Positions 29,458 through 30,534 of a stretch of DNA of 64,000 bases are shown one piece after another (the first letter of the stretch is position 1; each line of letters opens with the position of its first letter). The stretch is from Candidatus Babelota bacterium (GTDB lineage: Bacteria; Babelota; Babeliae; Babelales; JABDEC01): assembly GCA_013286795.1 (NCBI GenBank), contig JABDFA010000005.1, forward strand, positions 10,911 to 74,910. The letters run 5' to 3'. The notes beneath the pieces are model-generated. The model saw nothing but the letters and a program-made list of their open reading frames with translations. It searched no databases and was not told the DNA's origin. Made by a program: the position numbers and the translations under genes.

Positions 29458-30534
29458 TTAAAACTTGATTAACTTAAAACTTTGTAAAATATTTTTAATT
29501 GATTCACCAATAATTTGGAAACTTTCTTTAGTGTATCCACCTGAAAGCAACATTAAAATTGGAATTTTATTCTCTAAAGCTATCTTAAAAACAAACTGAT
29601 CCCTTTCTATAATTCCAGATTTAGAAACAGACATTTCACCAAGAGGATCATTTTCAAAAATATCTGTTCCTGCATTGTAAATTATAAAGTTAGGTTTTTC
29701 TTTTTCTATAGCTTTTGCTAACTCTTGTTTTACTAAACTTAAATATACAGAATCTTTTATAAAAGATTTTACAGGATAATCATATTTTATATATTTTTTT
29801 ACTTCAGTATCATTTGGATAAACTTGACTGTTATAAACGTCAAAAATTATAACACGCTTATCATCTTTTAAAATTTCTTCATGGCCATTACCTTGATGAG
29901 CATCAAGGTCGATAATCATAACTTTAGCTTCAGACTTAAATTTCCAAACTTGTTTTACAGCAAGTGGTATATCTGCATATACACAAAAACCTTCTCCATT
30001 TGATGATTTAGCATGATGATATCCACCTGAAAAATTTATAGCCCATCCATGATTTAAAGCTAACTCTGCTCCTAAAATAGTACCTCCAGTTGCTAACCTC
30101 ATTGAATCTAATAAATTGCTTTGTAATAAAAAGTTAGGCACATAAGCTAAAGGAGCAATTTCTGTAATCTTAGCCACAACTTGAGACTTGTTTAAGCTAT
30201 CTAAATAATCTTTTGTATGAACAGTTAAAAGCTCTTCTTGCGATACCATTCTAGGTATATGGAACCAACTTTCATTAACAACAGCATTTTGAATCAAATA
30301 ATTAACAACTTTGCCATATTTCTGTGAATCAAATGGATGCAACTTTTCTAACCCCAAAAATGAAATATCATAATTTTTGTGAAAAATTAGAGGAAGTTTT
30401 CTAGTATTTACTACATTACGTACTTTTGGAGTAAAATTTTTGAACTCTTTAATACCTTTAATCGAACCACAATTTATTGCTATAACACAAAATAACAAAA
30501 TAAAAGAAAAAAATTTCTTAAAATTAATTATCAT
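29458..30534 (-). CDS. class IV (HDAC11-like) histone deacetylase-family protein with N-terminal signal peptide
   Basis: GGYHHAKSSNGEGFCVYADIPLAV, IIDLDAHQGNGHEEI, YNAGTDIFENDPLG, LLSGGY. The N-terminal block NYDISFLGLEKLHPFDSQKYGKV resembles the HDAC11 signature as I remember it. Hydrophobic leader MIINFKKFFSFILLFCVIAINCGS. Confidence 0.85.
   Translation of the reverse strand: MIINFKKFFSFILLFCVIAINCGSIKGIKEFKNFTPKVRNVVNTRKLPLIFHKNYDISFLGLEKLHPFDSQKYGKVVNYLIQNAVVNESWFHIPRMVSQEELLTVHTKDYLDSLNKSQVVAKITEIAPLAYVPNFLLQSNLLDSMRLATGGTILGAELALNHGWAINFSGGYHHAKSSNGEGFCVYADIPLAVKQVWKFKSEAKVMIIDLDAHQGNGHEEILKDDKRVIIFDVYNSQVYPNDTEVKKYIKYDYPVKSFIKDSVYLSLVKQELAKAIEKEKPNFIIYNAGTDIFENDPLGEMSVSKSGIIERDQFVFKIALENKIPILMLLSGGYTKESFQIIGESIKNILQSFKLIKF

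Follow-up and report, generated by a model that had tools for sequence, protein, structure and literature searches.

A deacylase gene and its N-terminal leader

The stretch of DNA analysed here, referred to as the window, comprises 64,000 nucleotides of contig JABDFA010000005.1 (positions 10,911 to 74,910, forward strand) of a Candidatus Babelota bacterium, assembly GCA_013286795.1. At positions 29458..30534 of its reverse strand lies an open reading frame (ORF) of 358 amino acids with an ATG start, which encodes a member of the histone deacetylase (HDAC) family preceded by a hydrophobic leader. HDAC11-type enzymes, to which it is compared below, are seen as enzymes that regulate lysine acylation inside the cell. 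The contig was assembled from a soil metagenome, and the window has a G+C content of about 30%. Its RpoB (8314-12636, reverse strand) is 68-76% identical to its best matches, and all of those that carry a taxon name are Candidatus Babeliales, Babeliaceae or Dependentiae; judged by this protein, the organism belongs to the Babeliales (Dependentiae). The Dependentiae, or TM6, are known, or have been inferred, to live inside protists as parasites (PMC4776705; Pagnier, 2015, PMC4378268; Deeg, 2019, PMC6561590). The features of the gene, all on the reverse strand, are the following.

29458..30534, reverse: whole coding sequence, with leader, linker and predicted class IV clade B deacylase domain (PF00850, E = 4e-58; 46% identity to human HDAC11; AlphaFold predicted local distance difference test score, pLDDT, 88)
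30541..30546, reverse: in-frame TAG stop codon (30544-30546) that shares bases with an AGGGG Shine-Dalgarno-like site (30541-30545), both taken straight from the DNA letters
30463..30534, reverse: predicted Sec-type signal peptide, residues 1-24 (MIINFKK / FFSFILLFCVIAI / NCGS), from hydrophobicity, a heuristic for n-, h- and c-regions, and the model
30403..30462, reverse: basic disordered linker, residues 25-44 (IKGIKEFKNFTPKVRNVVNT), with pLDDT below 50 for residues 22-43 and an isoelectric point of 10.5
29479..30402, reverse: catalytic domain of the arginase/deacetylase fold, residues 45-352, from the high-confidence AlphaFold model and structural matches
30328..30339, reverse: loop 1 HPFD (H66-P67-F68-D69), a clade B signature, aligned to human HDAC11 H35-D38
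30160..30162, reverse: E125, aligned to human E94, the peptide-backbone-binding rim residue of clade B
30013..30021, reverse: Y172, the foot-pocket gatekeeper (Phe or Tyr in clade B), followed by the His dyad H173-H174, by alignment
29896..29904, reverse: zinc ligands D211 and H213 (DLDAHQGNG), aligned to human D181 and H183
29662..29664, reverse: zinc ligand D291, aligned to human D261
29533..29535, reverse: catalytic tyrosine Y334 (SGGY), aligned to human Y304

The histone deacetylase profile PF00850 matches residues 66-340 with 197.5 bits against a cut-off of 27.9 (E = 4.1e-58). The motifs FSGGYHHAKSS, DLDAHQGNGHE, YNAGTDIFENDPLG, SGGY and NYDISFLGLEKLHPFDSQKYGKV are all located in the ORF, as is the leader FFSFILLFCVIAINCGS, so the statement of an earlier note on this DNA that the catalytic blocks are intact is borne out. 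H173 and H174 align with human H142 and H143, and the complete catalytic set of His-His, Asp-His-Asp and Tyr is kept. In the AlphaFold model, which has a mean pLDDT of 88, the globular domain begins at about residue 45.

The N-terminus was set at M1 because the frame is closed by a TAG four codons upstream of the ATG, which is itself preceded at seven nucleotides by the AGGGG site. Ahead of the first conserved residues, at about K46, the ATG has a single in-frame alternative, the TTG of codon 13 within the hydrophobic core, and the next Met after the leader is M96, within the conserved domain; the leader is therefore part of the protein. An alternative start codon that would delete it was ruled out by the upstream stop and by the position of TTG-13 inside the core.

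Clades A and B of the class IV HDACs were defined by Novakova et al. (2026, Mol Biol Evol; PMC13325672). Clade B is distinguished there by an HPFD loop with Pro (Arg in clade A), by Glu94 on loop 2 (Gly in clade A), by a Phe or Tyr gatekeeper (Thr or Ser in clade A) and by the lack of the Arg-Glu salt bridge that plugs the foot pocket in clade A. The window protein has HPFD, E125 and Y172, and at the foot pocket's end it has S144 at the position of human P113, where a clade A enzyme of Chlamydomonas has Arg in the alignment. With the eukaryotic sequences of Table S1 of that article (PMC13325672) as references, the window protein is 46% identical to human HDAC11 (NP_079103.2) over 309 residues (BLASTP, E = 4e-106), 51% to Nematostella HDAC11/B, 42-44% to ciliate enzymes and 27-30% to clade A enzymes. 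The human N-terminal stretch that the earlier note had given, YNITFMGLEKLHPFDAGKWGKV, agrees with NP_079103.2, and the resemblance it had drawn to that N-terminus is confirmed. The clade A outgroup was split off in 100% of neighbour-joining bootstraps. The window protein is thus almost certainly a class IV, clade B (HDAC11-type) zinc deacylase, which upholds the earlier assignment to class IV and narrows it by signature residues and identities.

Among solved structures, the top sequence matches are three chains labelled just 'histone deacetylase', two of which the structure search names as Leptospira interrogans HDAC11 (9gz5) and Vibrio cholerae HdaH (9gkv/9gky). The best structural match is 9gz5, Leptospira HDAC11 with dodecenoic acid, at a template modelling (TM) score of 0.87, and the second is HdaH with decanoic acid; the target-normalised TM-scores of the two are 0.85-0.87, and both crystals hold a fatty acid in the foot pocket. 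In sequence searches of solved structures, no class I or II enzyme did better than an E value of 1e-29, whereas Leptospira HDAC11 reached 4e-41. Identity in the structural alignments is 27-29% to Leptospira HDAC11 and HdaH, and 27-28% to HdaH alone. HDAC11 and HdaH were placed by Graf et al. (2024, Nat Commun; PMC11532494) in clusters 5f and 5b, respectively; HdaH is a de-decanoylase. The motifs SGGYHH and SGGY, which stand in place of RPP and XGGY and open an extended foot pocket to long acyl chains, are also those of the window protein, which nevertheless, with so low an identity to HdaH, stands much nearer the HDAC11 side. With the clade B enzymes of human and Leptospira (liHDAC11/B) it has in common the fold, catalytic set, HPFD, rim Glu, gatekeeper and open foot pocket.

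Every clade B enzyme assayed, bacterial ones included, deacylated lysine peptides, mostly with a preference for C10-C18 chains and, in some basal bacterial enzymes, for acetyl to octanoyl (PMC13325672). Acyl-lysine deacylase activity may be inferred for the window protein by homology. AcuC and acetylpolyamine amidohydrolase were considered and rejected: the best matches are class IV, no NCBIfam family matched and the neighbourhood is not conserved. A position among ordinary acetoin and polyamine deacetylases with conserved synteny, which the earlier note had named as the outcome that would count against it, was not found; the protein lies outside those enzymes, and no synteny is conserved.

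The N-terminus has the layout of a signal peptide, with K6/K7 followed by a 13-residue hydrophobic core (FFSFILLFCVIAI), inside the 7-15 residues expected of such a core, by NCGS and then by IKG. A putative signal peptidase I cut would fall after S24, with Cys at -3 and Ser at -1, as the -3/-1 rule asks. The hydrophobic leader described in the earlier note therefore stands, its start codon being fixed by the upstream stop. In the AlphaFold model, residues 5-21 form a lone helix detached from the domain and residues 22-43 are disordered, with pLDDT below 50. The linker, with its isoelectric point of 10.5, adjoins a near-neutral domain and varies in length and sequence across homologues. A twin-arginine (Tat) signal was discarded, as residues 1-38 contain no twin arginine and no Arg at all, and so was a lipoprotein signal: A19-I20-N21-C22 has Asn at -1 and is no lipobox (taken as [LVI][ASTVI][GAS]-Cys at the end of the core), and the Cys is not conserved in Dependentiae relatives. 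Export of the protein from the cytoplasm is, on these features, predicted with good confidence.

Leaders were called by a simple heuristic of our own, based on hydrophobicity and n-, h- and c-regions. Applied to the window, it flagged 22 of the 58 ORFs of at least 120 residues and none that encodes RNA polymerase, ribosomal or other housekeeping proteins. This share is in line with the cultured Chromulinavorax, also of the Dependentiae, in which 44% of coding sequences have signal peptides (PMC6561590). The ORFs at 18653-20296 and 52546-54585, both on the forward strand, probably have listed starts too far upstream, and an internal Met (MNRILKLALFLVICQVISISA... and MKKIILILTILCFQSSLSA..., respectively) gives each a classic leader; the leader share of the window is therefore above 22 of 58.

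Homologues, their N-termini and phylogeny

In the protein database, 4361 homologues reach E ≤ 1e-3; the best matches are 55-61% identical to the window protein and all bacterial or metagenomic. A representative library contains 692 clusters (50% identity) at E ≤ 1e-30. When genomes were scanned, one for each species, 496 relatives came to light, and N-termini were classed in the best 80 of these after their full ORFs had been re-derived. The best 80 loci span at least 15 phyla, among them Babeliales, Patescibacteria, Omnitrophota, Desulfobacterota, Bacteroidota, Spirochaetota, Planctomycetota, Cloacimonadota, Fibrobacterota and Elusimicrobiota. Their N-termini fall into these classes.

32 loci: signal-peptide-like
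10 loci: lipobox Cys at the end of the core (e.g., LFAAAC, TLAGC, LLISC)
6 loci: longer, anchor-like core
2 loci: internal membrane segment
29 loci: no leader
1 locus (L021): no usable start codon

A signal peptide, lipobox or anchor is thus present in 50 of the best 80 loci, and a leader or membrane segment in 84 of the best 119 database matches (of 4361) and in 82 of 133 full-length representatives of 50% clusters. The share of the closest homologues with a signal peptide, lipobox or membrane anchor is about 62-71% across the sets. A hydrophobic segment occurs in each of the six loci with a Dependentiae or Babeliales label; in five (L002, L032, L042, L055 and L071) it is an N-terminal leader, and in L072 it is internal only, behind an N-terminal extension of about 264 residues. 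In most Dependentiae relatives the leader ends in a classic cleavage motif, such as LQA/K, VHA/D or VQA/K. The leaders are alike in layout and unlike in sequence, while the domains are 50-60% identical; conservation of layout without sequence is typical of targeting peptides.

Several single homologues deserve a description of their own. In a Babeliales metagenome-assembled genome (MAG; L002:5941-7032, JARLHJ010000041.1) an in-frame TAG stands exactly between the leader MKTFSRFLGLFLVLFAFVIEA and the mature domain, for which a fault in the assembly, decay to a pseudogene or decoupling of the leader could account; in the deposited annotation (P0109, 294 residues) an internal Met serves as the start, so that the domain is truncated. 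P0014 (L082:6001-7605, Logan SRR21358266) is a protein of 534 residues and 56% identity that joins leader, deacylase and C-terminal ankyrin repeats, and its gene is followed by metallophosphatase and Macro-domain genes. It is the only clear ankyrin fusion, ten long representatives having the deacylase domain alone, and no counterpart of its ankyrin part was found beside the other homologues. In the viral contig collection, the sole close relative lies on a 128-kb contig (L083:4001-4918, IMG/VR UViG_3300042524_000220), and three other contigs gave weak partial matches (25-29%, residues 173-334). This class IV relative is near full-length and 40% identical, leaderless, 314 residues long and has a Met gatekeeper (GGGMHH); the contig is AT-rich, with 26% G+C, and possibly comes from a large protist virus.

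Neighbour-joining trees were built from 137 and 107 sequences with 200 bootstraps. Their backbone is star-like, and the window protein sits amid leader-bearing Babeliales and small-genome uncultured bacteria. Exported forms turn up at scattered places in the tree, and the exported state is therefore old. A protein from a transcriptome-derived EukProt data set (P0066) has a bacterial-type leader and clusters tightly with the metagenomic bacterial P0062 and P0040; it is probably from a Dependentiae-like symbiont or a contaminant in the protist data.

The identity of 46-51% to animal HDAC11, above the 27-29% to the structurally characterised bacterial enzymes, would suit a recent acquisition of the gene from a eukaryotic host, whose enzyme the protein would then mimic. 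This origin is hardly credible, and it was rejected on the bootstrapped trees and on the equal similarity of free-living bacteria. The window protein fell within or beside the eukaryote clade in 0.5% of the 200 neighbour-joining bootstraps, its best matches (55-61%) are all bacterial or metagenomic, and it has SGGYHH, the bacterial and ciliate type, where the compared animal and plant sequences have GGGFHH. Mean identity to animal and plant HDAC11 is 47.2% for the window protein, 45.1 +/- 2.1% for sampled bacterial members and 42-47% for Dependentiae. As free-living bacteria are equally similar to eukaryotic HDAC11, the resemblance is a property of the family, and is no evidence of mimicry or of recent transfer.

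Type II secretion genes and genomic surroundings

A run of genes of type II secretion system (T2SS) type lies near the end of the window.

58660..63547, reverse: T2SS-type run with GspF, GspG, further pseudopilins and a GspK-like protein (PF00482, E = 5e-57; PF08334, E = 6e-23)

GspG (61867-62304) scores 92.2 bits with TIGR01710, above the NCBIfam equivalog cut-off of 88.85, and GspF is the best match for the gene at 62330-63547. Two more proteins with a prepilin motif are encoded at 61311-61880 and 59726-60613, with an unassigned ORF at 60610-61233 and a weak GspK-like ORF at 58660-59739. From gspF upstream to the end of the window there are no further ORFs, which places gspD and gspE elsewhere. 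A T2SS is the only secretion system described in Babela (PMC4378268) and a core feature of TM6 (PMC4776705). Most ankyrin proteins of cultured Dependentiae have signal peptides, and Sec followed by the T2SS is the predicted route of effectors (PMC6561590; PMC4378268; PMC4776705); leader-bearing ankyrin and ubiquitin-system proteins are treated as secreted into the host (PMC4776705; PMC4378268). The T2SS would be the outer-membrane route for proteins exported by Sec.

The surroundings of the deacylase gene contain further leader-bearing proteins.

27722..29429, reverse: three small co-directional ORFs (151, 245 and 161 residues) with MKLNK... leaders called by the heuristic, at gaps of 28, 2 and 26 nucleotides
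27667..27690, reverse: terminator-like hairpin with a 9-bp stem and T-run after the last of the four genes, by consensus match only
31445-33294, forward: three RING-finger paralogues in tandem, with 26-36% identity among themselves and a hydrophobic leader at every N-terminus
38836-40011: ankyrin protein with a leader
42576-46423, forward: two tandem Sel1-repeat and DUF5092 paralogues with a leader, identical in their first 19 residues (MKISLKQVLLLLIMSSATS)

The three small ORFs lie 3' of the deacylase gene and have near-identical MKLNK leaders, and the 151- and 161-residue proteins are paralogues of about 30% identity. None has a Pfam or NCBIfam match, and no homologue of them lies beside the deacylase in the 80 other loci. 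Together with the deacylase they form a possible transcription unit of four genes; matches in a promoter scan were at chance level. On the other side, a SpoU methyltransferase gene separates the deacylase from the RING genes, so the position given in the earlier note, between a secreted-protein family and RING genes, is correct once SpoU is added. At least the first RING paralogue also has internal hydrophobic segments (by eye). The known partners of RING fingers are the ubiquitin-conjugating (E2) enzymes of eukaryotes, and the three paralogues are candidates for exported or membrane-anchored mimics of E3 ligases. At 33319-34361 on the reverse strand, overlapping leaderless helix-turn-helix (155 residues) and Fic/DOC (192 residues) genes look like a Fic toxin or regulator pair.

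The gene context of the deacylase is not conserved. When the window's 13 neighbour genes were compared with the 80 loci, none was kept alongside the homologue, tgt in L058 being the sole exception, and a Pfam scan of 93 proteins that flank leader-bearing homologues found no family more than three times. The closest relatives have differing neighbours, and in two of them the deacylase follows a tolQRAB-like cluster and an ankyrin gene. In these two loci (L089:164-6053 and L091:402-5027) an ankyrin gene and a TolB-like gene precede the deacylase and ftsH follows it, with tolQ-, tolR- and tolA-like genes further upstream in L089; this local synteny is absent from the window. The gene behaves as a stand-alone, mobile or accessory gene, and its context varies even among Dependentiae, as expected of accessory genes.

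Rival roles and meaning of a probably exported clade B enzyme

The best explanation, which we hold with about as much confidence as doubt, is that the gene encodes a catalytically competent clade B N-acyl-lysine amidohydrolase, made with a cleavable Sec signal peptide, that meets host proteins. The Sec system would carry the protein over the inner membrane, where signal peptidase I would cut it near S24. The mature enzyme of 334 residues would need only Zn2+ and no cosubstrate, and could in this way work outside the cytoplasm, where its expected chemistry would be the hydrolysis of acyl-lysine. The context suggests that it would probably be passed on by the T2SS encoded in the window or by vesicles, and that it might then meet proteins of the host cell, as is assumed for its leader-bearing RING, ankyrin and Sel1 neighbours. 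With T2SS genes and leader-bearing RING, ankyrin and Sel1 proteins in the window, export is plausible, and possibly so is delivery to the host. The points taken to favour host direction are the Babeliales placement, the abundance of signal peptides and the predicted Sec/T2SS effector route in cultured Dependentiae, gspF and gspG, the leader-bearing RING neighbours, the ankyrin fusion of P0014 and the variable gene context. That the substrate is a host protein is a somewhat shakier proposal, drawn from context.

Known systems offer partial models for such an enzyme. The nearest working model of a host-directed deacylase is LphD (Smh1) of Legionella pneumophila, a zinc enzyme of the HDAC family that is exported by an intracellular bacterium of protists and for which H3K14ac has been demonstrated as a target (Schator et al., 2023; PMC10104843). 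However, LphD belongs to cluster 3 (ApaH-like) (PMC11532494) and takes the type IV (Dot/Icm) route, whereas the window protein lies on the cluster 5 side and has a Sec-type leader. Membership among LphD-type effectors was rejected on the cluster assignment, and no Legionella enzyme is among the 60 best sequence matches with solved structures. Leptospira HDAC11 is described as being without a signal peptide and human HDAC11 as cytoplasmic and nuclear (PMC13325672), in contrast to the window protein with its Sec-type leader and basic linker. A counterpart of the leader is found in the clade B HDAC11s of the ciliates Tetrahymena, Paramecium and Stentor, which combine SGGYHHA with an N-terminal hydrophobic targeting segment and a secretory or luminal compartment (PMC13325672). 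Their N-termini are longer, with several helices and endoplasmic reticulum targeting (PMC13325672), and at 42-44% identity they cluster with eukaryotes and not with the window protein. Organism group, kind of leader and tandem leader-gene neighbourhood are the same in the leader-bearing ankyrin, RING and Ulp1-like proteins of Dependentiae (Pagnier, 2015, PMC4378268; Deeg, 2019, PMC6561590), with the difference that the deacylase family, unlike RING or ankyrin domains, is exported in free-living bacteria too.

Several findings weigh against a cleavable leader that serves delivery to a host. Leaders occur in the homologue of Desulfatibacillum alkenivorans DSM 16219, a sulfate reducer that is free-living and in culture, in that of a MAG assigned to Desulfosudis oleivorans, a species known in culture as a free-living sulfate reducer, and in Cytophagales, Chitinophagales, Fibrobacter and Planctomycetia; the phyla with free-living bearers include Desulfobacterota, Bacteroidota, Spirochaetota and Planctomycetota. 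The export signal is thus a majority trait of the bacterial subfamily that extends beyond host-associated lineages, and an architecture so common in free-living bacteria is not by itself a sign of a host target. With nearly half of Dependentiae proteins having a leader, its presence is also a weak sign of effector status. Dependentiae sequences are no nearer to eukaryotes than are other bacterial members. The T2SS secretin and ATPase genes are not in the window, and the sequencing runs that contain the sequence are soil and sediment metagenome DNA, with no RNA run among them. For the leader itself, the 18 uncharged residues from K7 to K26 leave room for an uncleaved signal anchor, and cleavage was read from the -3/-1 rule by itself. 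T2SS substrates have no known sequence motif.

The main rival, which we consider real if less likely, is an enzyme that is exported and self-serving, acting in the periplasm or at the cell surface in a role common to the many exported homologues of free-living bacteria, with no specific tie to host chromatin or signalling. It might deacylate an envelope protein, lysine- or ornithine-type lipids, lipopeptides, competitor toxins or acyl-polyamines, or it might free fatty acids for uptake. The spread of the architecture speaks for such a role: 50 of 80 loci from at least 15 phyla are exported or anchored, about 10 as clear lipoproteins and some in cultured free-living sulfate reducers; 82 of 133 full-length cluster representatives have such a segment; and the exported state, being scattered over the tree, is old. 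In two close relatives the gene comes just after the tolQRAB-like envelope cluster, and scavenging would suit the Dependentiae, which make no lipids themselves and are believed to draw on those of the host (PMC6561590). Yet no neighbour is conserved, the commonest family accounting for at most three of the 93 flanking genes, and one Dependentiae relative has the ankyrin fusion. We also know of no periplasmic acyl-lysine substrate. Moreover, the clade B rim residues (HPFD and Glu) are the ones associated with substrates that are peptides or proteins, and acyl-lysine peptides are deacylated by every clade B enzyme tested (PMC13325672).

Two other explanations bear on where the protein resides. 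If the leader were an uncleaved signal anchor, the catalytic domain would be periplasmic and tethered to the inner membrane, a form that concerns location alone and fits either substrate model. We consider it rather improbable: the uncharged stretch between K7 and K26, the model helix of residues 5-21, the anchor-like cores of 18-21 residues in several homologues (Patescibacteria, Spirochaetes) and the signal anchors reported for ciliate clade B enzymes (PMC13325672) would allow it, but the strictly hydrophobic core has just 13 residues and is followed by the helix-breaking small residues N-C-G-S, which fit the -3/-1 rule, and the leaders of most Dependentiae relatives end in classic cleavage motifs. 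An ordinary cytoplasmic housekeeping deacetylase, in which the leader would be a start-codon artefact or an inward-facing hydrophobic tail, is extremely improbable. Leaderless homologues do exist (27-29 of 80 loci, 35 of 119 matches) and one Babeliales MAG has TAG between leader and mature part, but here the in-frame stop lies four codons before the ATG, TTG-13 is in the core and the next start, M96, is in the domain, and all Dependentiae-labelled homologues keep an N-terminal or N-proximal hydrophobic segment despite free sequence divergence.

The claim of the earlier note that this is an exported enzyme acting on host lysine acylation therefore holds in part. Its first half is favoured by the leader, the parasitic phylum and the predicted Sec/T2SS route; action on the host is still inferred, and both the leader and the likeness to HDAC11 are family-wide. 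The leader cannot be kept as a mark specific to pathogens, as about two thirds of the closest bacterial homologues, free-living ones included, have a leader, lipobox or anchor.

In the literature that was searched, no description of exported, signal-peptide-bearing bacterial class IV HDACs was found. The terms 'signal peptide' and 'periplasm' are absent from Graf et al. (PMC11532494), where LphD is the only secreted example, and the localisation table in the available part of Novakova et al. (PMC13325672) lists eukaryotes only, Leptospira being absent. The Dependentiae/TM6 genome papers (PMC6561590; PMC4776705; PMC4378268) mention no deacetylase, and a full-text literature search for Dependentiae with histone deacetylase returned nothing relevant. 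Within the limits of that literature, the window protein appears to be a standard clade B domain behind an export signal that represents a large exported branch. We would tentatively go further and suggest that the closest bacterial relatives of eukaryotic HDAC11 are mainly extracytoplasmic, whether secreted by Sec, anchored as lipoproteins or tethered to the membrane, and form a large undescribed class IV branch with native substrates beyond the cytoplasm. The Dependentiae form of this ancestral exported enzyme may have been co-opted as a T2SS effector that removes fatty-acyl or acetyl groups from lysines of the host; as a whole this remains less probable than not.

To our knowledge, Legionella LphD is the only bacterial effector of the HDAC family shown to reach host chromatin. 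If the window protein is indeed a T2SS effector, it would be the first HDAC effector delivered by Sec and the T2SS, and the first of class IV. As a candidate secreted deacylase of a parasitic bacterium the gene is sound, and its leader points to an exported branch of the family that has not been described before; it does not prove a host-directed weapon. As most bacterial members, including those of genetically tractable, cultured free-living species, have export signals, the question arises of what an acyl-lysine amidohydrolase does in the periplasm or at the cell surface, a question left aside by both recent surveys, one of bacterial and one of class IV deacylases. If the enzyme is secreted into protist hosts, lysine de-fatty-acylation would join the host processes manipulated by bacteria, and the enzyme would provide a biochemical handle on an almost uncultured parasitic phylum.

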